Below, one piece after another: positions 41,727-51,275 of a stretch of 64,000 nt of DNA. The DNA lies in assembly GCA_963833095.1 (NCBI GenBank), contig CAWHWQ010000005.1, positions 288,001 to 352,000 of the forward strand, written 5' to 3'. Numbering within the stretch: the first letter of the stretch is position 1; every line of letters begins with the position of its first letter. Source of the stretch: Vulcanimicrobiota bacterium (lineage in GTDB: Bacteria > Vulcanimicrobiota > Vulcanimicrobiia > Vulcanimicrobiales > Vulcanimicrobiaceae). The position numbers and the translations under genes are program-made. Below the pieces are notes generated by a model that worked only from the letters and a program-made list of their open reading frames with translations, was not told the origin of the DNA and ran no database searches.

Positions 41727-42946
41727 AACGCCGGTTCGCGCTCGCGCTTCTTGGACTGGCAGTCGCGGCCGCGCCGCGCGCGCTTCCCGTTGACCGCGCG
41801 GTCGGATCGATTGCCGCGGCTGCGCTTCCCTATCTTCCGGGCAGTACACTGTCGATTCGGGTCGACGGCTTCAGGCCGCCTTTCACACTCTTCGTCAGCG
41901 GCCCAGGAAGCGTCGACGGGAGTACCTATCGCGTTTCGACCGGCGGGAAGCAGAGCACGCTCATTGCATCCGGCGCGCACGGCCTGGCGGTGCGCACCAT
42001 TGCGATCGCGCCAACACCGGATCCGCGCCGCGCCTTTATCGCCGTTGCAAGCTACGACGACGGGATCGTTTTGCACGATTCCATGCCCCCATTTCGCGCG
42101 CGCGCGGCACTCGGAATCGGCGGCGCTCCCGGCGACGTTGCGATCGATCGCAACGGTGCAATTGCGACGACCGCAACCGATGGTGACAGCGCGACCATTG
42201 CTTCGCTTACCCCTTGGCAAGTTCGCCGCTTCACGGGCGTAGCGCTCGGCGATGAGCTCGACTTCGATTCGCGCAGTAACGCGCTCTTCGTTACCAACCG
42301 CGATATAGACGGCTTCGGAGCCCTCACCCGCATCGCAGCCGACGGCACGGTTTCTCACCGAGTCCTCGGGCTGACCGCCGAAGGCCTTGCCATCGACCCG
42401 AAGCGTGAGCGCGTCTATGTCGCGAACGTCAACGACGGTACCGTTTCCATAGTCGATGCAACGAGCATGGTTGAGTTACGTCGCTTTGCGGTTGTCGCGC
42501 GCGTCTTCTCACTCGCTCTCTCAGACGACGGATCGCGTCTGTTTGCAGTTTCGAATCAAAGCCTGGGATCGCCGTTTTCGGCCCCCGGCAGCGTTGTCGC
42601 CGTCGACGTCATTGCCGCTGTCCCGCACGTCACGGCCCGAAGTGAACCTCTGACGTTCCCGATCGGGATCGCGTTCGACGGCGCGCACCACCGCCTCTAC
42701 GTGACCGATGAAGATACGGATGCGGTCGACGTCCTTGATGCGCGCACGTTGCGCGCCGCGCACTCGCCGTTACGCACGTGCATAACGCCGTGGAAGCCTA
42801 CGGTCGATGGACATTGGCTCTTCGTGCCGTGCGCCGGAAGCGATCAGGTCGACGTCTTCGACACAGCAACGCTGCGGCGCGTGCCCGGAGCTCCATTTGC
42901 AACCGGCGGCTATCCGCTTTCGGTGGCCGTGTGGAATCCCACCTAA
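41723..42946 (+). CDS. Secreted YncE/YVTN-type beta-propeller protein
   Basis: Repeats such as GLAIDPKRERVYVANVNDGTVSIVD; signal peptide; TTG start overlaps the upstream TGA. Confidence 0.8.
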   Translation: MKRRFALALLGLAVAAAPRALPVDRAVGSIAAAALPYLPGSTLSIRVDGFRPPFTLFVSGPGSVDGSTYRVSTGGKQSTLIASGAHGLAVRTIAIAPTPDPRRAFIAVASYDDGIVLHDSMPPFRARAALGIGGAPGDVAIDRNGAIATTATDGDSATIASLTPWQVRRFTGVALGDELDFDSRSNALFVTNRDIDGFGALTRIAADGTVSHRVLGLTAEGLAIDPKRERVYVANVNDGTVSIVDATSMVELRRFAVVARVFSLALSDDGSRLFAVSNQSLGSPFSAPGSVVAVDVIAAVPHVTARSEPLTFPIGIAFDGAHHRLYVTDEDTDAVDVLDARTLRAAHSPLRTCITPWKPTVDGHWLFVPCAGSDQVDVFDTATLRRVPGAPFATGGYPLSVAVWNPT

Positions 42947-42947
42947 A

Positions 42948-45026
42948 ATGCTCTTTCCTCTTCTCTTTGCGATTCTGCCGGTGCATCTCGATCCCGCGCC
43001 GCCGTTTCCGCGGATCGCCTTCGACGCGCCGACCATCCAGCGAGTCGCGCCCGGCGTCGAGTACGGCGAGTACGATCTTATAACCAGCGCCGGTCCGATT
43101 GTCGTTCACGCGATCGCGGTTGCACCGCAGACGCCGCAGATCGAACTGAACACCGTGCTTGCCTCCGACGCATTGCAGTCAACCGGCGAAACGGTTTCGT
43201 CGATGGCGCGGCGCACGGGCGCCATCGCCGGGATTAACGCCGATTACTTCGATATCGGAAACACCAATCGTCCAACCAACATCGTCGTGCGTCGCGGAGC
43301 GCTACTGAGCACTCCAACGAAGCGCTACGCACTCATGATCGGCAGTAACGACACTCCGCAAATCATCGAGATGACCTTTACGGGGACGCTGCAACTTGCC
43401 GATCGCACGGTGTCGCTCGACGCGGTCAACCGAATGTCCAACGATGGAACGTCGCTACTGACACCGGCATTTGGTTCGGTCGCACCGCATGACAACGTCA
43501 CCCTGCTGGCACTGACGCCGACCAGTGGAAATCCACCGTTTGCAACATATCGCGTCAGCGCTGTTCTCGACAACACGATCGCGCAGCCGCCTGGATACTA
43601 TCTTGTAATCGGCCTCGATGCATACGCGCAGGTGGGCGTGCCCAATCCCGGCGACGCGATTGCGGCGAGCGGCGATCTCGCGCCCTTCCCGCTCGCTAGT
43701 CTCACAGCGGCAGTTGGCGGTGGTCCGCTCATCTTGAGCGCTGGTTCGTGGATCGACGACCCCGATGGGCCCAGCGGTGGCGAATTTGCGCAACGCATTC
43801 CTTGCAGCGGCGCGGCGCTGAGCAGCGACGGCACCTTGTACCTTCTCGAGGTAGATGGGCGGCAACCCGAACTCTCCGTCGGCATCACGCGCCCGGAGTT
43901 TGCCGCATTGATGCGGGCGTTTGGTGGCGTACGCGGGATGGCTTTCGATGGTGGCGGGTCGTCTGAGTTGGTGGCACGCATACCGGGCGAGACGAACGCG
44001 TCACTCGTGACGATGCCCTCGGATGGACACGAGCGTAAAGTTGCCGACGGAATCTTCGTGTATGACACGGCTCCGCTTGGGCCCGCGTCGCAGCTTCTCG
44101 CCGCACAGCCGGCGGTTCGCGCGCTCCCCGGGGCAAGCGTGAGCGTGCATTTCGTCGGCGCCGACGCTGCGCAACACGTCGTTGCCCTTCCGCAGCCTAT
44201 CGACGTGCACGTCGAGCCGTCAACGCTGGGGACGTATCGCGATGGGACGTTCACCGCCGCGGAACCCGGCGAGGGCGCGCTCGTCGCACGTGCCGGCGCG
44301 CTGATTCAAAAAGTACCCGTGCACGTTGTCGCCGAGCCGGCGCGGCTCGCGATTCTTCCGCAGGTTCCAAGTGTTGCGCAGGGCGGGCGCCTGACGCTAC
44401 AAGCGCGCGCGTACGACGCGCAAGGGTATGCTCTTGCATTGCCCGCGCAACTGCCCTGGCGCGCACAGGGCGCATCGATCGACGCAAATGGAACGCTCGA
44501 CGCGGGAAACACGAACGTTCTTGTCTCGCTGCTTCTCGGCGACCATCTGGCAAACGCTCGTGTCACCGTCGGGTTTCACGACGCGGCCCTCGCCTTCACG
44601 CCTTCGTTTATGACCGCGCCACGCGGCGGCGATGGCGCTGCCGGGCCGAGTCCCGAGTGCGCGTCGTGCACCCAGCTTCGCTACTCGCTCGGGCCGCAGG
44701 AACGAGCGGCATACCTCGTCACCGACGTCACGCTACCACAAGATAGCGTCGGAATCGCGTTCGAGGTCTTCGACGACGGTGAGGGAGAGCAGCTTAAGCT
44801 CGCGCTGCGCAATGCGATTAACGAAGAAGTTCTACTCTCGGCAGGTGTCATGAATCATCCCGGTTGGCGGGCGGTAGAGGTGCGGCTGCCATCCGGGCTC
44901 GCGCAACCAGCGCGCCTCGTCGCGATCTACGTCATCGGATCGAGCGCTTCGGCTTTGCTGCGCGGCAACATTTCGGTAAGGAATCTTCACGCTGTTGTAG
45001 CAGGCCAGGAGTCGAGTCGACCCTAA
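42948..45026 (+). CDS. Phosphodiester glycosidase (NAGPA/DUF2233) family secreted protein
   Basis: AGINADYF, AVGGGP, EVDGRQ, AFDGGGSS; Ig-like and carbohydrate-binding-like C-terminus. Confidence 0.85.
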   Translation: MLFPLLFAILPVHLDPAPPFPRIAFDAPTIQRVAPGVEYGEYDLITSAGPIVVHAIAVAPQTPQIELNTVLASDALQSTGETVSSMARRTGAIAGINADYFDIGNTNRPTNIVVRRGALLSTPTKRYALMIGSNDTPQIIEMTFTGTLQLADRTVSLDAVNRMSNDGTSLLTPAFGSVAPHDNVTLLALTPTSGNPPFATYRVSAVLDNTIAQPPGYYLVIGLDAYAQVGVPNPGDAIAASGDLAPFPLASLTAAVGGGPLILSAGSWIDDPDGPSGGEFAQRIPCSGAALSSDGTLYLLEVDGRQPELSVGITRPEFAALMRAFGGVRGMAFDGGGSSELVARIPGETNASLVTMPSDGHERKVADGIFVYDTAPLGPASQLLAAQPAVRALPGASVSVHFVGADAAQHVVALPQPIDVHVEPSTLGTYRDGTFTAAEPGEGALVARAGALIQKVPVHVVAEPARLAILPQVPSVAQGGRLTLQARAYDAQGYALALPAQLPWRAQGASIDANGTLDAGNTNVLVSLLLGDHLANARVTVGFHDAALAFTPSFMTAPRGGDGAAGPSPECASCTQLRYSLGPQERAAYLVTDVTLPQDSVGIAFEVFDDGEGEQLKLALRNAINEEVLLSAGVMNHPGWRAVEVRLPSGLAQPARLVAIYVIGSSASALLRGNISVRNLHAVVAGQESSRP

Positions 45027-45036
45027 AACCGAGTCC

Positions 45037-46485
45037 ATGGGGTTTGAGGCTCTTGGTCGCCGGGCGCTTGACACGGCGAGCACTCGTGGTGCCCATTACG
45101 CCGACATTCGTTTCGAAAACGTGCACGGTGAACGCATCGAGGTGCGTAATGGTGTCGTGGCGTCACTCGCCGACGGGCAGAGTTGCGGCTACGGGATTCG
45201 CGCGCTCATTGACGGTGCCTGGGGATTCGCCGCGAGCAGTGACCTTTCCGATTCCGGCGTCGATCGGACCGCGGCTCGCGCGGTCGCGATCGCGCGAGCC
45301 AGCGCAGCGATAGCGCGCGAACGCTTCGGCGAGGCTCCGCTCCATGCGTACATCGATCGCTATCATACCCCGATCGTGCGCGATCCGCGCAAGGTCCCGC
45401 TCGGCGAACGCGTTGCGCTTCTCCTCGAAGCCGAGAAACTCGTTCATGCCGGCGAGCGTATCGCCGTCGGACGCGCGTGGCTGGACTTGTGGCGAACCGA
45501 GAAGTTCTTTTATAGCACCATCGGATCCGCGATCGAGCAAACGATCGTGCAGACGGGAAGCGGTGTGCAAGCGATGGCGGTCGGTGACGGCGACGTTCAG
45601 ACGCGCGCCTTTCCCGGCGACATCGGCCTTTACAAGTCGGGCGGTTGGGAGATCGTCGAGGAAGCAGCGCTCACGCAAAACGCGCAGCGCATCGGCGAGG
45701 AAGCCGCCGCGCTGCTTAGCGCTCCACAATGTCCAAGCGGCACCTTCGATATCATCCTCGGCGGCTCGCAGGTTTCGCTGCAGATTCACGAATCATGCGG
45801 CCATCCAGCCGAACTGGATCGCGTGATGGGATGGGAAGCCAATTTTTCCGGCACGAGTTTTCTCGAGGTTTCGCAACTCGACAAGCTGCGGTACGGATCC
45901 CCGGCCGTCACGATCGTGGTCGACAACAACCTGCCCTCAGGGATGGCGACATGCGGCTACGATGACGAGGGAACCAAATCCGGCACCTCGGACGTCGTGC
46001 GCGACGGCGTGCTGCGCGGATACGAGATGAGCAACGATACGGCGCGTGCGATCGGACGCACCAGCAACGCGTGCGTGCGGGCCCAGAGCTGGGAGTTCGT
46101 GCCCATGATCCGCATGTGCAACCTGAACCTTCTGCCGGGCGACGTCCCGTTCGAGGGGCTCTTCGACGGGGTGCGCGACGGTATTTATATGGAAGGCAAT
46201 CGGTCATGGTCGATCGACGATCGGCGCTTGAACTTCCAATTCGGTTGCCAAATCGGCTGGGAGATCAAGAACGGAAAGCGCGGCCGCATGCTCAAGAATC
46301 CCACGTACGCGGGCGTCACTCCGCAATTTTGGAACGCGTGCGACGCGATCGCTGACGTGGCGTCATGGAACGCGTGGGGGACGCCGAACTGCGGCAAGGG
46401 TGAACCGATGCAGTCCGGGCGCACAACGCAAGCCGCCTCGCCGGCGCGTTTTCGACAGGTGAGCGTCGGAGTCGGTTACCAGTGA
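45037..46485 (+). CDS. tldD: TldD family metalloprotease
   Basis: IHESCGHPAELDR (HExxxH), GYDDEG, CGKGEP. Confidence 0.92.
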   Translation: MGFEALGRRALDTASTRGAHYADIRFENVHGERIEVRNGVVASLADGQSCGYGIRALIDGAWGFAASSDLSDSGVDRTAARAVAIARASAAIARERFGEAPLHAYIDRYHTPIVRDPRKVPLGERVALLLEAEKLVHAGERIAVGRAWLDLWRTEKFFYSTIGSAIEQTIVQTGSGVQAMAVGDGDVQTRAFPGDIGLYKSGGWEIVEEAALTQNAQRIGEEAAALLSAPQCPSGTFDIILGGSQVSLQIHESCGHPAELDRVMGWEANFSGTSFLEVSQLDKLRYGSPAVTIVVDNNLPSGMATCGYDDEGTKSGTSDVVRDGVLRGYEMSNDTARAIGRTSNACVRAQSWEFVPMIRMCNLNLLPGDVPFEGLFDGVRDGIYMEGNRSWSIDDRRLNFQFGCQIGWEIKNGKRGRMLKNPTYAGVTPQFWNACDAIADVASWNAWGTPNCGKGEPMQSGRTTQAASPARFRQVSVGVGYQ

Positions 46486-47813
46486 AAGCGCCGGAGCGGG
46501 AGGCGATCGCGCGGCGCGCAGTGGAACGCTCGCGCGCGGATCAGACCGAGGTCCGCATCAGTTGCAGCGACGAGTCGCTCACCCGCTTCACGCGCGGCAT
46601 CTCGAACCAAAACGTCGCAGCCGAGGATGTGACGATTTCGATTCGAGCGATCGTCGACGGACGTACCGGCGTCGCGACCTCCAACGACACTAGCGATGCG
46701 GCGGTCGACGCGTTGCTCGCGCAAGCGCTCGACATGGCCTCGTTCGCGCCCAGCGACCCGCTCGTGCCAGTGTTGCCGGAGGGCGGTCCGGCCCAAGCGC
46801 CGGCCGGATGTTACGTCGAGGCGACGGCGACGTGCGACCCGGCAACTCGAGGAACGATCGCGGACGCCATTTTGACGCGAGTGGAGCACGAGCGTTATTG
46901 GTGCGCAGGATACGTGTCCACTTCGAGCGGCGGGACGACAATCGCCAACTCTTCCGGTGCGCTTGCCTCGTTCGACGGCACCGACGCACAGGTCAACGTC
47001 AAGGCGACGGCCCCGGACTCGACCGGCTTTGCCGAGCATTACACCGTCGACGTACGAGAGCTCGACGGGAGCGGAGTCGGTGCGCAAGCGGTAGAGCTCG
47101 CGCGGGCAAGCGCGCAACCGCGCGCGGTCGAGCCTGGACCATGGACGGTGATCTTAGAGCCACCGGCCTTCGGCGAGCTTCTGACCTATCTGCTCGCGCA
47201 TTTTTCGGCCCAAAATTTCAGCGACGGCTCGTCATTCTGCTCCGATGGACTCGATCGCAAATACTTTGACGAACGCGTTACGATGGCTGACGACTTCAGC
47301 CATCCGCTTGCACCGGCGATGCCATTCGATTACGAGGGACAGCCGAAGTCAAAAGTCGCGCTCGTCGTGGCCGGCGTGGTGCGTAACGTCGTGACCGACA
47401 GCTACTATGCAAAAAAGCTTGGCCGGCCCGACACCGGTCATGCGCTTCCCGCACCCAACGCATACGGTCCCCAGCCGCTCAACGTCGTCGTTGCGCCGGG
47501 GACGCAAAGCACGCAAGACCTGATTGCAGGTACGAAGCGCGGGCTCTTGATTTCGCGCTTCTGGTACATTCGCACGGTCGATCAAAAACGCGCGATCGTG
47601 ACCGGGATGACGCGCGACGGCACGTTCTTGATCGAAAACGGCAAGATTGCGGGCGGCGTGCGCAACATGCGCTTCAATCAAAGTATCGTCGAGGCCCTCG
47701 GCTCGGTTGAATTCTCAAACGCGCAAAAGCGCACGGGATCCTACGCGGGATCACTGGTCGTCCCGACCGCGAAGATCGACCGCTTCACCTTTACTAGCAC
47801 AACCGACTTTTAA
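46482..47813 (+). CDS. PmbA/TldE family protein
   Basis: PGPWTVILEP, PFDYEG, TGMTRDGTFLIENG; no HExxH. Confidence 0.9.
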   Translation: MKAPEREAIARRAVERSRADQTEVRISCSDESLTRFTRGISNQNVAAEDVTISIRAIVDGRTGVATSNDTSDAAVDALLAQALDMASFAPSDPLVPVLPEGGPAQAPAGCYVEATATCDPATRGTIADAILTRVEHERYWCAGYVSTSSGGTTIANSSGALASFDGTDAQVNVKATAPDSTGFAEHYTVDVRELDGSGVGAQAVELARASAQPRAVEPGPWTVILEPPAFGELLTYLLAHFSAQNFSDGSSFCSDGLDRKYFDERVTMADDFSHPLAPAMPFDYEGQPKSKVALVVAGVVRNVVTDSYYAKKLGRPDTGHALPAPNAYGPQPLNVVVAPGTQSTQDLIAGTKRGLLISRFWYIRTVDQKRAIVTGMTRDGTFLIENGKIAGGVRNMRFNQSIVEALGSVEFSNAQKRTGSYAGSLVVPTAKIDRFTFTSTTDF

Positions 47814-47843
47814 CGGCCCTTCGGGCCGATCCGCAGATTTTCT

Positions 47844-48578
47844 CTACCGCCCTCCCGCTGCCAGGGCTGCCTTCATCAGTGTGGCGCGGAGTTTGCCGTC
47901 TTCGAGTTCGAACAATCCACGGATCGTGCGTCCTCCCGGCGTCGTTACCTCATGTTTGAGCGCGCCCGGATGGGTTTCGCTCTCCAATACAAGGCGTCCC
48001 GAGCCAAGCACGGTTTGCGCGACCAATACGCGCGCCTGTTCGTACGGAATGCCAAGCGCGATCGCAGCATCGATCAGTGCTTCGATCACAACAAAGATGA
48101 AAGCCGGTCCGCATCCGCTAATCGCGGTAACCGCGTCCATCAACGATTCGTCGAGCACGAGCGTACGGCCGAAGGTATCGAACAGCCCTCGCGTTTGCTC
48201 CAGCGCTTCTTCGTTGCTCTCGCGGGCGCGTGCGAGCACCGTCATCGCAGACGAGACGCGCGCGGGCGTATTCGGCATCACTCGCACGATCCGCGCTCGA
48301 TTCGCCGTCCAGTCGCGCAGCGATCCGGTCTCGACCGCCGCGACCGCCGAAACGAGGATCTGATCTTCGCGTAGCACCGGTGCGATCTGCGTGCAGACCT
48401 CGGCGGCGTCGCGCGGCTTCACGCAGACCACGACGATGTCGCTTCCCGCTGCAACGGCGCAGTTACGTAGCGCCGACGCGCGCGTGGTCGAGTCGATCTC
48501 GCGCACTTGTGGATTGCGCTCGAAGCCCCGCTGCAGCGCACCCCCAAGCGTTCCACGACCGATGATGCCGATCCGCAT
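47844..48578 (-). CDS. proC: Pyrroline-5-carboxylate reductase
   Basis: IGRGTLG, VCVKP, RVMPNTP, TAISGCGPAF, VTTPGGRTI; SD GAGGGA. Confidence 0.95.
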   Translation of the reverse strand: MRIGIIGRGTLGGALQRGFERNPQVREIDSTTRASALRNCAVAAGSDIVVVCVKPRDAAEVCTQIAPVLREDQILVSAVAAVETGSLRDWTANRARIVRVMPNTPARVSSAMTVLARARESNEEALEQTRGLFDTFGRTLVLDESLMDAVTAISGCGPAFIFVVIEALIDAAIALGIPYEQARVLVAQTVLGSGRLVLESETHPGALKHEVTTPGGRTIRGLFELEDGKLRATLMKAALAAGGR

Positions 48579-48594
48579 GTTTCCCTCAATTAAT

Positions 48595-48633
48595 AAAAAA
48601 GACGAACCGCCCCGGTAACCGGAGCGGTTCGTC
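48595..48633 (-). terminator. Intrinsic terminator (attenuator) upstream of proC
   Basis: Minus strand GACGAACCGCTCCGG-TTA-CCGGGGCGGTTCGTC-TTTTTT, ending 16 nt before the proC ATG. Confidence 0.9.
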
Positions 48634-48656
48634 GCAAAGTGCTTTGACGACGCGCG

Positions 48657-48719
48657 CTACCGAACCGGCATCTCCTGATGCGGCTGCGGCGGGCACGGCG
48701 GGATGTGCACGTACGTCAT
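48657..48719 (-). CDS. Putative Pro-rich leader peptide MTYVHIPPCPPQPHQEMPVR
   Basis: ATG at 48719 to TAG at 48657; six CCG Pro codons, five within codons 7-13; absent from the ORF track because it is too short. Confidence 0.75.
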   Translation of the reverse strand: MTYVHIPPCPPQPHQEMPVR

Positions 48720-48731
48720 TGTCCGGCGATC

Positions 48732-49556
48732 TTACCCTGCCGCGCGCCTGCGCGTCAAGAGCACTCCAATGAATAAGGCGAGAAACCCCGCAGCAACGAC
48801 CGCCAGATCGGGAATCGACACCACCTCGATCGCCGGATAGGAAAGGACGCTGGCGCGCAATCTCAATCCGCCCAAGAGCACCGCTTGGCCGTCAGGCGCG
48901 ACGCCGATACCGTGCCGAACCGGCGCTCCGGTCTCGTCCTCGAGATCGAAGAGAACAACCGGTCCATGGATCGTCGACAGCGCCGGGATTGACGCCGCTT
49001 GTGCCGCCGAAAATAGTACCGCCTTGACAACGCGGTGTGCCGCTGGAACTGCAAACGTATCATATGGTAACGAGAAACCTGCGATCGTCTGCGTGTTTTC
49101 CATCAGTAGCACCGGTGAGAGGAAGGCGCTCCCAGTCGGCTGCGTGATCGTCAAATGCGCGCCGCGCTGATCGAAGGCCTCGACGCCAAGCACGGTGCGC
49201 GGCACGCTGCGCAGCAACGCCGTGGCGGTGTAGCGCCACGCGGCGATCGGCTGCGCATGCAACGGCGGAAATCTCATCGCTCCGCCAGCTTCGTCGACCT
49301 TCAAACTCGTGCCGGGAGCACCGATAACCGTCCGCGTATCCGGACCGAGCAGCCCGCTCGCTATCCCGGCGAACGCGATTGCACCAACGCCAAACGCGAC
49401 CAACGGGGCGCGGCGCATGCCCGCGATCGCCCACATCGCAAGGGCGGCAAGTCCTACGTTGTACCATCCTGCGTGATAGACTGCGCGTCCGGGCAGAACC
49501 ACCTCAAACACGACCGCGAGCACAACGAGCGCCGCGAGGAGCGTTGCGCTCCTCAC
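48732..49556 (-). CDS. Membrane protein, possibly a divergent ResB/Ccs1-like cytochrome c biogenesis protein
   Basis: Three N-terminal TMs with VYHAGWY, soluble beta domain, C-terminal TM; GTGA-coupled to the TlpA gene. Confidence 0.45.
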   Translation of the reverse strand: MRSATLLAALVVLAVVFEVVLPGRAVYHAGWYNVGLAALAMWAIAGMRRAPLVAFGVGAIAFAGIASGLLGPDTRTVIGAPGTSLKVDEAGGAMRFPPLHAQPIAAWRYTATALLRSVPRTVLGVEAFDQRGAHLTITQPTGSAFLSPVLLMENTQTIAGFSLPYDTFAVPAAHRVVKAVLFSAAQAASIPALSTIHGPVVLFDLEDETGAPVRHGIGVAPDGQAVLLGGLRLRASVLSYPAIEVVSIPDLAVVAAGFLALFIGVLLTRRRAAG

Positions 49557-50087
49557 GTAGCGCGCACGGCTTGACCGATCGCCGAACGCATCTGTTCGAT
49601 GGTAAGCGGCCCATCGAATCCGCGCTCGACGATACCACGCCGGTCGATCACCACCGTCGTCGGCAATCCCAAGCGCCGAAAAGACCCGTCCATATTGCTG
49701 GGCATCGTCGATCCAAATCGGGAACACGATACCGAGCGAACGCGCGAACGCCGCAGCGCGCGCCGCCGATTCGCCCTGATTCACGCCGACGACCGCCACG
49801 CCGTCTTTCGCGTACTCGCGCGCGACGGTTTGCAGATCCGGCATCTCGGCACGGCAAGGCGGACACCACGAGGCCCATAGATTCATCACGACGATTTTGC
49901 CGCGATACTGCGTCAGCGAGACCGGCGACGCCGCGATCGTCGCGAAGCGCAAAGACGGGAGCGGATCGCCCGACCAATCCAGCGGGACCCGGCCGGGCGC
50001 GCCCCGGGCGCGAAACAGCGGGACAATATGAGCAGCCGCGACCGCGATCGCCGCGAACGACAGCAGCCAACGGGCGCGCGGACTCAC
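49553..50087 (-). CDS. TlpA/ResA family thiol-disulfide oxidoreductase (one frameshift near 49665)
   Basis: N-terminal TM; YRGKIVVMNLWASWCPPCRAEMP; the LPTTVVID region is shifted. Confidence 0.85.
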
Positions 50088-50400
50088 CAATCGCCCATCC
50101 GATCTTCGTCGACTTCGCCTTCGAAGACGACCGTTCCGCTGGGCAAAACCGCCGCGAAAAACGGCATGTCGCGAAAGCGAACCTCGCGCTGCCGCGCCGC
50201 TTCGTCGCCGAGACTCGAAGAGCCGGCAGTAGCGATCCAGCACGTCGGGGCTGCAGCGCGCCACGTGCGGCGCGACGTTATAGGTCTCGACGAAACTTTC
50301 GTACGCGCGCTCGAACTCACGGCCCCAAAGCGGGCTTCGAGAACGATCTCGCGTCGGACGCGTTCCAGGGATGCCTCCTCGGTTACGGAGAAATCGCGAC
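50084..50400 (-). CDS. Small hypothetical protein (frameshifted; start uncertain)
   Basis: Fragments EFERAYESFVETYNV and FRDMPFFAAVLPSGTVVFEGEVDEDRMGDW*; stop overlaps the TlpA start. Confidence 0.45.
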
Positions 50401-50403
50401 GGC

Positions 50404-51275
50404 GTGCCCGCCCGAATACTCGACGGAAAAGCTCTTGCCGCCGAATTGCGCACGGAACTGCTCGCGCGTACCAATGCGCTGCGGGATGCCGGTATTCATC
50501 CCAAGCTGGTCATCGTTTTCGTGGGTGAAAACGAGTCGAGCGTCGCCTACGTCAGAAATCTGGTCAAAACGGCCGAGCGCGTCGGGATCGCGGTCGACGT
50601 CGACCGCCTGCCCGAGCTGCGACCGCGGCCGAGGTGCGCGCACGGCTCGAGCGGCTGCATGACGACCGTTCGGTCCACGGCGTCATGCTCCAGCAGCCGC
50701 TCCCGCCGCATCTTTCGATCCGCGAGATCGCCGACGCGATCCCGGCGCACAAAGACGTCGACGGCACGCATCCGATGAATCAGGGACACCTCGCGTTCGG
50801 CAGCGGCACCGAATACGTGCCCGCGACGCCGGCCGCGGTTATGCTGCTGCTCGAACGCAGCCCGCATTGGCCGCTGCGCGGCCGTCGCGCCGTGATGATC
50901 GGCCGATCGATCGTCGTCGGCGCACCGGTCGCGATGCTGATGCTCGCCCAGGACGCGACCGTCACCGTCCTGCACAAAGAGACGCGCGAGATGCGCCGTG
51001 ACGTAAAGAACGCGGAGATCGTCGTCGTCGCGACCGGCGTGCCGGGACTGATCACCGGCGACGACATCATGCCCGGCGCAACAGTCATCGACGTCGGCAC
51101 GACGGTCGTCGACGGCGTGCTCAAAGGCGACGTCGATTTCGAAAGCGCGGTAAAAGTCGCCGGCGCGATCACGCCGGTTCCCGGCGGCGTCGGCCCGGTC
51201 ACCAACGTCGCGCTGCTGCGCAACGTCGTCAAGAGCGCCGAAAAGATGGGCCTCTCCGCTTCGCTCGCGCTAACG
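50404..51275 (+). CDS. folD: Methylenetetrahydrofolate dehydrogenase/cyclohydrolase (frameshift near 50625; end uncertain)
   Basis: ARILDGKALA, SVAYV, HGVMLQQPLP, KDVDG, GRSIVVG, ITPVPGGVGPVT. Confidence 0.93.

Follow-up and report, generated by a model that had tools for sequence, protein, structure and literature searches.

A conserved leader ahead of proC in Candidatus Eremiobacterota, probably a trp-type attenuator that reads proline codons

In a 64,000-nucleotide (nt) stretch of DNA from a bacterium of the phylum Candidatus Eremiobacterota, or Vulcanimicrobiota (genus label Candidatus Aquilonibacter), the gene for pyrroline-5-carboxylate reductase, proC, is preceded by a compact leader that combines promoter-like hexamers, a proline-rich upstream open reading frame (uORF) and a terminator. 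The whole of this stretch is referred to here as the window, and all coordinates of the leader are those of its minus strand. Comparison across genomes indicates that the leader is a real, conserved regulatory element, and it is quite probably a classical ribosome-mediated attenuator of the trp type, which would sense the supply of prolyl-tRNA and control proC. A preliminary description of the window, made from its letters, had proposed a layout like that of the trp and his attenuators; the comparison supports this layout, with a conserved uORF, a covarying terminator and predicted alternative 1:2, 2:3 and 3:4 pairings.

The uORF of the window has 20 codons, six of which encode Pro (codons 7, 8, 10, 11, 13 and 18, with codon 7 at 48699-48701 and codon 18 at 48666-48668), and every one of these is CCG. 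Its ATG lies 12 nt past the TAA stop of the upstream gene (48732-48734), and its own stop codon is followed after 23 nt by a terminator stem (48633-48601) of 15 pairs, 11 of them G-C, with a 3-nt loop and then T6. A further 16 nt, holding the Shine-Dalgarno (SD) sequence of proC, separate the U tract from the proC ATG. The preliminary description had these parts and the distances of 12 and 23 nt right. The predicted transcript (48722-48595) folds with -61.8 kcal/mol (z = -4.52), and none of 200 shuffled sequences was equally stable. The downstream gene is identified as proC by Pfam (P5CR_dimer, E=2.2e-36; F420_oxidored, 1e-07) and by TIGR00112 (215 bits, above the cut-off). The features are as follows.

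48753..48758, minus strand: -35 hexamer TTGACG, within the final codons of the upstream gene (promoter scan and comparison)
48729..48734, minus strand: -10 hexamer TAAGAT, which includes the TAA stop of the upstream gene (promoter scan and comparison)
48720..48723, minus strand: predicted transcription start, about 7 nt past the -10 box, from promoter geometry
48657..48719, minus strand: leader peptide uORF MTYVHIPPCPPQPHQEMPVR*, 20 codons and UAG
48681..48698, minus strand: codons 8-13 (P C P P Q P), a putative cluster of regulatory Pro codons, from comparison of leader types 1a and 1b
48677..48697, minus strand: segment 1, 5' strand of the 1:2 hairpin (predicted anti-antiterminator), from the RNAalifold consensus
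48651..48672, minus strand: segment 2, 3' strand of the 1:2 hairpin, which includes the UAG at 48657-48659, from the RNAalifold consensus
48630..48652, minus strand: variable spacer hairpin CGTCG-T-CAAA/TTTG-CGACG, which on its 3' side reaches into the base of the terminator arm
48619..48633, minus strand: segment 3, 5' arm of the terminator, with CGCUCC at 48621-48626
48601..48615, minus strand: segment 4, 3' arm of the terminator, whose lower stem covaries
48595..48600, minus strand: U6 tract of the intrinsic terminator, from the sequence and a terminator scan
48583..48587, minus strand: proC Shine-Dalgarno sequence GAGGG, read from the sequence; a purine-rich SD is kept in relatives
47844..48578, minus strand: proC, pyrroline-5-carboxylate reductase, 244 amino acids (Pfam, TIGR00112)
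48732..50474, minus strand: upstream gene, 580 amino acids, with a redoxin/AhpC-TSA domain; its 3' end holds the leader promoter

Such a composition is rare in the window's own genome, where at least 30% Pro is found in 0.29% of 6,953 small ATG ORFs of 15-30 codons and the core motif of the uORF occurs a single time. At the 62% G+C of this genome, at least five Pro codons occur in about 9 of the 327 small ORFs ahead of terminator-like sites, so that the composition of one genome is unconvincing by itself. One alternative frame of the uORF is likewise free of stops, as read by eye. An Rfam scan of positions 47500-50000 with E values up to 10 gave seven weak matches, none of them a T-box and all under their gathering scores (the best reached 20.3 bits, with a gathering score of 40).

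Comparison across genomes gives good support to the attenuator reading. Among 61 related genomes, ProC was present in 31, which gave 30 loci, and 21 of these have a Pro-bearing uORF and a terminator ahead of proC (one further locus is cut by a contig end). All 17 loci of the genus (ProC 72-100% identical) and one locus from another genus (ProC 49% identical) share the same leader. A pattern derived from its core, scanned over 185,579 species genomes, matched 23 places, 22 of which are this leader; in the distinct ones that were examined, the frame downstream opens with the ProC N-terminus, the sole feature by which these downstream genes were identified. The remaining match (L050, Lysobacterales) was set aside as a chance one, with no ORF and no terminator. 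Four contigs (L034, L037, L038 and L048) that are titled Alphaproteobacteria, Acidoferrum (twice) and Acidiferrales carry leaders identical to those of the window's genus-mates (L004, L016, L010 and L006), and their group labels are likely to be wrong.

After removal of duplicates, this form of the leader, type 1a, comprises 25 distinct sequences (alignment A1). The ATG, the UAG, the frame and the Pro codons of the core are kept in all 25, the uORF has 20 or 21 codons, and changes in length are confined to 3 nt (in L017 and in L018/L040). The N-terminal six to seven codons (codons 2-7) vary freely, and the first Pro of the window's IPP, at codon 7, is not conserved. Codons 8-20 read PCPPQPH(Q/R/L/H)E(M/V)PVR, with one variant PLPPPPHHEMPVR and one group PCPPSPHRRMPVR, and the core common to the 25 leaders is PCPPQPH..PVR*, for which L052 has the variant PLPPPP. 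Residues 15-16 vary (QE, RE, LE, HE, RR), and they coincide with the loop of the RNA hairpin described below.

A sister version, type 1b, is found in eight genomes (seven labelled g40 and a small contig of G316) and starts with GTG. Its peptide follows M..(H/R/Y)(S/L)(M/I/L)PPC(L/P)P(T/L/M)PP(P/S/Q)(R/Q)VPAG*, with seven Pro in 20 codons, and some of its Pro codons differ by synonymous changes (CCT/CCG at codon 7, CCT/CCC at codon 11 and CCG/CCA at codon 15). Pro at codons 8, 11, 13 and 18 is common to the 25 type-1a and the eight type-1b leaders. Codon 7 of type 1b lies outside every predicted helix, yet it encodes Pro in all eight leaders, and because of this the constraint on it is best read as selection on the meaning of the codon rather than on pairing. 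In type 1b (L059, L061-L066 and L069), codon 10 encodes Pro exactly where codon 15 is S or Q, and the total stays at seven of 20; this constancy may reflect compensation or shared descent. The metagenome-assembled genome G316 has two proC genes with two leader types (L064 on C211 and L097 on C160), and its 3.4-kb contig with the type-1b leader resembles genus g40 and may be mis-binned.

The design also extends beyond these two versions. Among 60 more proC genes of the phylum whose upstream DNA was examined, 22 loci have a strong terminator right before proC and a Pro-bearing small ORF ahead of it, five of them being matches of the pattern scan as well. The design thus spans 12 genera in two families (f1 and f2), in quite different nucleotide sequences. 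Further leader types read MFARFSPAPAPTPHRRMPVR, MITLRRPQFPPCWKERVPQG, MSNRTIARPLPPTLKGPVR, MTTLRATVRPVPPTHTEGSTVR, MFCAAALRQLPPPPYHPVRRRIALSAT and MLAATVRVPPRRPMRSAPVRVRHG; one type (MFHPVSFRPSIPPLRFARPIGLRMLG) occurs in three genomes of the second family and another (MFLTLRRMPSNPRPRC...) in three genomes of genus g8. At seven loci outside the two families (G062-G076) no leader was seen, with weak terminator-like sites in G062 and G067 that were not inspected for uORFs. No residue is more enriched than Pro over 12 leader types, where it makes up 22.6%, compared with 8.2% in the 6,953 small ORFs (2.77-fold); the proteome-like figure is 5.3%.

Folding of the 25 type-1a leaders with RNAalifold returned two elements, the 1:2 hairpin and the terminator. 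The 1:2 hairpin, at columns 29-75 of the alignment (48697-48651 of the window), has 18 pairs. The Pro-codon stretch itself, CGUGCC-C-GCCG-CA-GCCGCAUC, makes up its 5' strand, and its 3' strand, GAUG-C-CGGU-U-CGGU-A-G-C-GCGCG, contains the stop codon. A small hairpin, GCATC-AGGA-GATGC, that had been noticed inside the ORF does exist, as the tip of this larger structure, which extends from the Pro codons as far as the stop codon. Across the alignment 99.6% of the cells of the 1:2 hairpin are paired: 13 pairs are invariant, two depart in L052 only, and at three a change on one strand leaves the pairing intact (U-G/U-A, G-U/A-U and U-A/U-G). The other substitutions in the core fall in the 4-nt loop (AGGA, GGGA, UGGA, ACGA, AAGA, GCAG), in the internal loop or at the unpaired U63. 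The strands are nearly invariant and show no two-sided covariation, as would be expected if they serve both as code and as stem, although this expectation is not a proof. Type 1b has the same architecture in partly different letters.

The terminator is better supported. Compensatory changes are found at six of the seven pairs of its lower stem among the 25 leaders, by which comparative standard it is a real hairpin. In the upper stem variation is confined to the segment-4 side, and CGCUCC (columns 112-117) of the opposite arm is invariant in all 25; a second pairing partner for this arm would explain the one-sided variation. Between the 1:2 hairpin and the terminator, the sequence of the spacer hairpin differs among genomes while a hairpin is kept in the folds of the individual sequences (CGTCG/CGACG becomes CGTTG/CAACG in L004 and TTCATC/GATGAA in L017, as read by eye).

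A candidate for the second partner is segment 2. When the leaders were folded with the 3' arm left out, as in mid-transcription, and with segment 1 removed, as under a stalled ribosome, segment 2 paired with the 5' arm of the terminator around the spacer hairpin in all 25 type-1a and all eight type-1b leaders. These antiterminator folds have energies of -15.6 to -21.1 kcal/mol, and the terminators -15.4 to -33.1. The best-conserved antiterminator helix joins GG-U-AGCG (48655-48661; the last codon, UAG and 2 nt) to CGCU-CC (48621-48626). In a search anchored on the stop codon, a helix of six to seven pairs was found in 35 of 42 leaders; in every case it lies within the terminator arm, and the end of the U tract follows after 25-32 nt. 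At the -1 position 25 leaders have G-C, nine have A-U and one has G-U, and at the -3 position 21 have C-G, eight have G-C and six have a C/A mismatch. The preliminary description had placed the antiterminator elsewhere, in a CGGTT...AACCG hairpin that takes 9 nt of the terminator arm. That hairpin is present in the minimum-energy fold of L001 without the 3' arm, and the pairing holds within the window's genus, to which it is confined. As a general antiterminator it was rejected: it is unable to form in L018/L040, where the arm reads AUCGCUCCG, and L011 and L035 have a GUU-to-GUC change for which, by eye, this register offers no clean compensation.

The promoter lies within the end of the upstream gene. 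A promoter scan gave one match, TTGACG-18-TAAGAT at 48758-48729, against 0.2 expected, and both hexamers are invariant in the genus (17 of 17 sequences for TTGACG), while the coding spacer between them varies. Over all leader types, 41 of 42 leaders have TTGnnn-17/18-TAnnnT, with the exact TTGACG in 34 of the 42. The distance from the -10 hexamer to the start codon is tightly held (9 nt in 33 leaders, 10 nt in five and 6 nt in three), and SD-like words occur in three of the 42, each within the -10 hexamer itself. With a start about 7 nt past the -10 box, 0-3 nt would precede the AUG (about 3 nt in the window), and the uORF would thus be near-leaderless. Reinitiation on an operon transcript, which the preliminary description had named as a possible route to translation of the uORF, becomes unneeded because this conserved promoter adjoins the uORF start.

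Other leaders of the same genome (G000; 2.8 Mb, 62% G+C, 81% complete) have a similar build. A candidate His leader (L118:103-240; G000:C1:403202-403340, plus strand) has a uORF MSVFQAHVHHHHHHGLASRVR with seven His, a TATAAA 11 nt before the ATG and a terminator-like hairpin of -25.9 kcal/mol, and it is followed by hisG, a class I/II aminotransferase (hisC) and imidazoleglycerol-phosphate dehydratase (hisB). A candidate Phe leader rich in F, Y and W (L119; G000:C1:45300-46400, minus strand) has a GTG-start uORF MTVHSFSYAFWYYYFGLGGPRGFAHA 9 nt past a -10-like box and a terminator-like hairpin of -29.6 kcal/mol, and then prephenate dehydratase (PDT, 8.7e-38). Both share the promoter-to-start-codon geometry of the proC leader. 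With these two leaders beside that of proC, the organism plainly appears to use leader-peptide attenuation. On contig C2 of the same genome (minus strand, T-run at reverse-complement offset 93107), a small ORF MDWWLLRPIRHK with two adjacent Trp lies ahead of a terminator-like hairpin of -17.7 kcal/mol; 166 nt further on, the next long ORF encodes 523 amino acids and is not an obvious trp gene. Two Pro-rich small ORFs ahead of weak terminator-like sites (C1:818976 and C3:64913) were dropped, their downstream genes being unrelated or unclear.

The pathway context gives proC a particular position. In G000 and four near-complete congeners (G001, G002, G006 and G010), no proB or proA scored above curated cut-offs, while ornithine aminotransferase (TIGR01885) did so in all five genomes. 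The genus probably makes proline from ornithine via pyrroline-5-carboxylate, and given this pattern ProC would be the sole dedicated step of proline synthesis. No Pro leader was found ahead of the ornithine aminotransferase gene in G000. Across the phylum, proC (TIGR00112) was found in 139 of 401 sampled genomes and in 85 of 247 high-quality ones, and it is nearly absent from large genera (4 of 80 genomes of g33 and 3 of 33 of g31); this scarcity hints at widespread proline auxotrophy or at another route. The unpublished genome G025 (L027, no leader) is counted both among the relatives and in the tally of 401, G211 and G278 solely in the latter, and no positive claim depends on these three. 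Downstream of proC and convergent with it, the plus strand of the window (42807-47813) carries a gene with a NAGPA phosphodiester-glycosidase domain and a TldD/PmbA pair (45037-46485 and 46482-47813), with no tie to the leader seen.

These parts suggest a mechanism of the trp type. From the sigma-70-like promoter that lies within the 3' end of the upstream gene, RNA synthesis would start about 3 nt ahead of the AUG, and a ribosome would load on this near-leaderless RNA. With proline plentiful, the ribosome would reach the UAG and cover 48659 to about 48645, that is, all of segment 2 (the footprint is given as 12-15 nt 3' of the P site; PMC3641672). The antiterminator would then be blocked, the 15-pair 3:4 terminator would form, and transcription would stop at U6, 16 nt before the start of proC. 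If the uORF were not translated at all, 1:2 would pair and the terminator would likewise form. When charged prolyl-tRNA is scarce, the ribosome would stall at codons 8-13, holding segment 1 and reaching at most to about 48668-48670. GG-U-AGCG would be left free, the 2:3 pairing would form before the 3' arm is made, and the polymerase would enter proC.

Several observations weigh against this scheme and are best considered together. Some concern its reach: 8 of the 30 relatives' loci and 38 of the 60 further proC loci have no such leader, and the leaders of genus g8 are Pro-poor (two to three of 25-29 codons). Pro-Pro pairs are absent from the leaders of G316a (SPAPAPTP) and g8 (NPRPRC). The type-1a core shows no synonymous change over 13 codons apart from GUU/GUC, even where ProC is about 49% identical, and here codon and RNA constraint are indistinguishable, the Pro codons all being CCG and within the stem. 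The conserved Pro18 lies within segment 2, and a stall there would therefore favour termination.

The greater part concerns the antiterminator. The alignment of the relatives' proC upstream regions, which the preliminary description had suggested, bears out a conserved uORF and a covarying terminator but gives no covariation of the antiterminator within the 25 type-1a leaders, where every pair is invariant. The stop-codon helix was not found in seven of the 42 leaders by the anchored search, and the compensations between leader types that this search yields are biased towards complementarity and come from few independent lineages. In a leader of 62% G+C almost anything pairs, and the energy of the 2:3 duplex is mostly no better than with a shuffled segment 2: shuffles were at least as good in 2-160 of 500 cases for 24 type-1a leaders and in 369 of 500 for L052, and the 429-477 of 500 obtained for type 1b are not meaningful, as the arm was cut short there. 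With RNAalifold, alignments that end before the 3' arm reached no more than a weak consensus, at -5 to -7 kcal/mol. At -28.5 kcal/mol the terminator also exceeds the antiterminator fold (-21.1 kcal/mol) in stability, and the choice of read-through would therefore have to be kinetic. In the trp leader the terminator is likewise more stable than the antiterminator. The antiterminator is thus plausible and consistent with the predicted folds rather than demonstrated. Finally, the public sequencing runs that cover the stretch comprise four DNA runs from one study and no RNA runs.

Other readings of the same hardware can be weighed against these observations. It is doubtful, though conceivable, that the leader is a switch that combines proline supply with the capacity that depends on elongation factor P (EF-P), or a release-arrest sensor of free proline that acts through the P-x-R/G-stop. 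The first idea starts from the Pro-Pro motifs among the putative regulatory codons, through which ribosomes move slowly in the absence of help from EF-P. If either idea is true, this would be a new sensing mode on attenuator hardware, and it would explain the apparently constant Pro count of the eight type-1b leaders (seven of 20, with two positions swapping).

A simpler form of the first idea, that the leader reads the speed of passage through Pro-Pro (EF-P activity or general translation capacity) instead of the charging of tRNA-Pro, is improbable. Most leader types do contain Pro-Pro (PCPPQP, PPC.PTPP, LPPPP, IPPL, VPP), efp is present in all five genomes of the genus that were searched, and proline-driven pausing is described as a regulatory device in SecM and MgtL (PMC12856214). 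However, the G316a and g8 types do without Pro-Pro, and the gene under control makes proline, which fits end-product sensing. Nothing ties proC to EF-P.

It is very unlikely that the conserved 47-nt hairpin is a protein or small-ligand site that controls the terminator, with an ORF incidental to its G+C-rich stem. The nucleotide invariance of the type-1a core across distant ProC sequences is what RNA-level constraint would produce, but such a site would not call for the conserved frame and stop, the fixed distance from the -10 hexamer to the start or the restriction of indels to 3 nt. Type 1b and other types moreover keep Pro with other nucleotides and synonymous variants, the element matches no Rfam family, and His and Phe leaders of the same build are present in the same genome.

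Little probability also attaches to a nascent-peptide arrest in which the C-terminal ..MPVR-stop or ..VPAG-stop stalls in response to free proline or another metabolite, comparable to the arrest of TnaC in response to tryptophan. P-x-(R/G)-stop is kept in several types (PVR*, PAG*, PQG*), but these nucleotides also belong to segment 2 and to the predicted antiterminator, and their invariance is accounted for in this way; residues 15-16 vary exactly at the RNA loop. Quite different C-termini occur as well (..RIALSAT*, ..GLRMLG*), and a stall at the stop codon would cover segment 2 and thereby favour termination.

Least credible is the absence of regulation, in which case the hairpin would simply end transcripts of the upstream redoxin gene, proC would be expressed by leak-through or from its own start, and the ORF would be a by-product: the hairpin lies about 100 nt past the upstream stop codon and would end that transcript, and in two relatives (L020 and L060) proC directly follows the same upstream gene with no leader, but conservation of the promoter extends to synonymous sites within the upstream gene, the 16 nt from the U tract to the proC ATG leave no space for another promoter ahead of the SD, the leader is retained where the upstream gene differs (L043/L088), and the uORF and the 1:2 hairpin are conserved.

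The proposed trp-type attenuator can be placed among known systems. Like the classical attenuators of Escherichia coli and Salmonella (trpL, hisL, pheL, leuL, thrL, ilvL), it has codons for the end product in a short ORF, predicted alternative 1:2, 2:3 and 3:4 pairings with the putative regulatory codons in segment 1, a terminator right before the first gene, and a stop codon so placed that a terminating ribosome would block 2:3. The element differs from these attenuators in its amino acid, proline, and its single target, proC; in having no SD and a start about 3 nt from the predicted 5' end; in a stop codon that belongs to both the predicted 1:2 and the predicted 2:3 helices; in Pro codons that are interspersed (P.PP.P) rather than in one long run; and in its host phylum, Eremiobacterota, and its lack of an Rfam match.

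Pro codons are read by the leaders of Salmonella Mg2+ transporter and virulence genes. In mgtP, of the mgtCBR leader, the adjacent Pro codons 10 and 11 are reported to be necessary and possibly sufficient, and for mgtP and mgtL a drop in charged tRNA-Pro leads to alternative leader structures and to more downstream transcription (PMC3641672). The conserved Pro-Pro of the proC leader of the window is at codons 10-11 too. In contrast, mgtP and mgtL are SD-led ORFs in long leaders that also take ATP and Mg2+ signals, and control of mgtA acts through Rho (PMC12856214). No sequence relation to either was seen, and the element described here, with proC as its downstream gene, is not a member of that group.

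The same logic and the same target are found in Bacillus subtilis, where a tRNA-Pro T-box relieves a terminator ahead of proBA and of proI, which encodes a pyrroline-5-carboxylate reductase (PMC9245794, citing Brill et al., 2011). In both systems scarce or uncharged tRNA-Pro would open anabolic proline genes. In a T-box, however, the RNA binds the tRNA directly and no translation is involved, whereas the leader of the window has no specifier or T-box sequence. The near-leaderless start has parallels as well. Leaderless polycysteine short ORFs have been reported as attenuators in mycobacteria (bioRxiv 10.1101/834739), and 14 leader peptides, leaderless with a 5'-AUG, have been predicted in Deinococcus deserti, in a paper that also summarises the mechanism of leader-peptide attenuation (PMC4007540). 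These share with the proC leader a short ORF at or next to the 5' end, ahead of amino-acid genes and with no SD; they concern other amino acids, and the leader described here has a clear intrinsic terminator with covarying stems.

Within open-access papers and preprints (subscription journals and supplements being outside this scope), no leader-peptide attenuator on a proline-synthesis gene was found, in agreement with the preliminary description, which knew of none for proC. Term searches for "proline" returned nothing in the Deinococcus paper (PMC4007540) or in a survey of attenuators (PMC2965389), and in a 2026 review of proline in translation (PMC12856214), which names SecM and MgtL, the searched terms "attenuat" and "proline biosynthesis" were absent. 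In the literature so covered, proline synthesis is controlled by T-boxes (in Bacillus) or by feedback on enzymes, and leaders with Pro codons are known only ahead of Mg2+ transporter genes.

Taken together, these observations suggest that the element is most likely a new case of a textbook class of attenuator, from a phylum that has hardly been studied. Leader-peptide attenuation is the standard example of the ribosome as a metabolite sensor, and a proC leader that reads Pro codons would add to it an amino acid for which no published case was found. If the reading is correct, the design of the attenuator tolerates an amino acid that itself slows the ribosome. The natural variants of the leader (PCPPQP, PPCLPTPPP, PAPAPTP, LPPPP) offer a series in which to ask what number and spacing of Pro codons are needed to sense proline. 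For Eremiobacterota, a widespread and almost uncultured phylum of soil and peat, the leader would be a first concrete regulatory element, and together with the candidate His and Phe leaders it suggests that near-leaderless attenuators are a routine device there.

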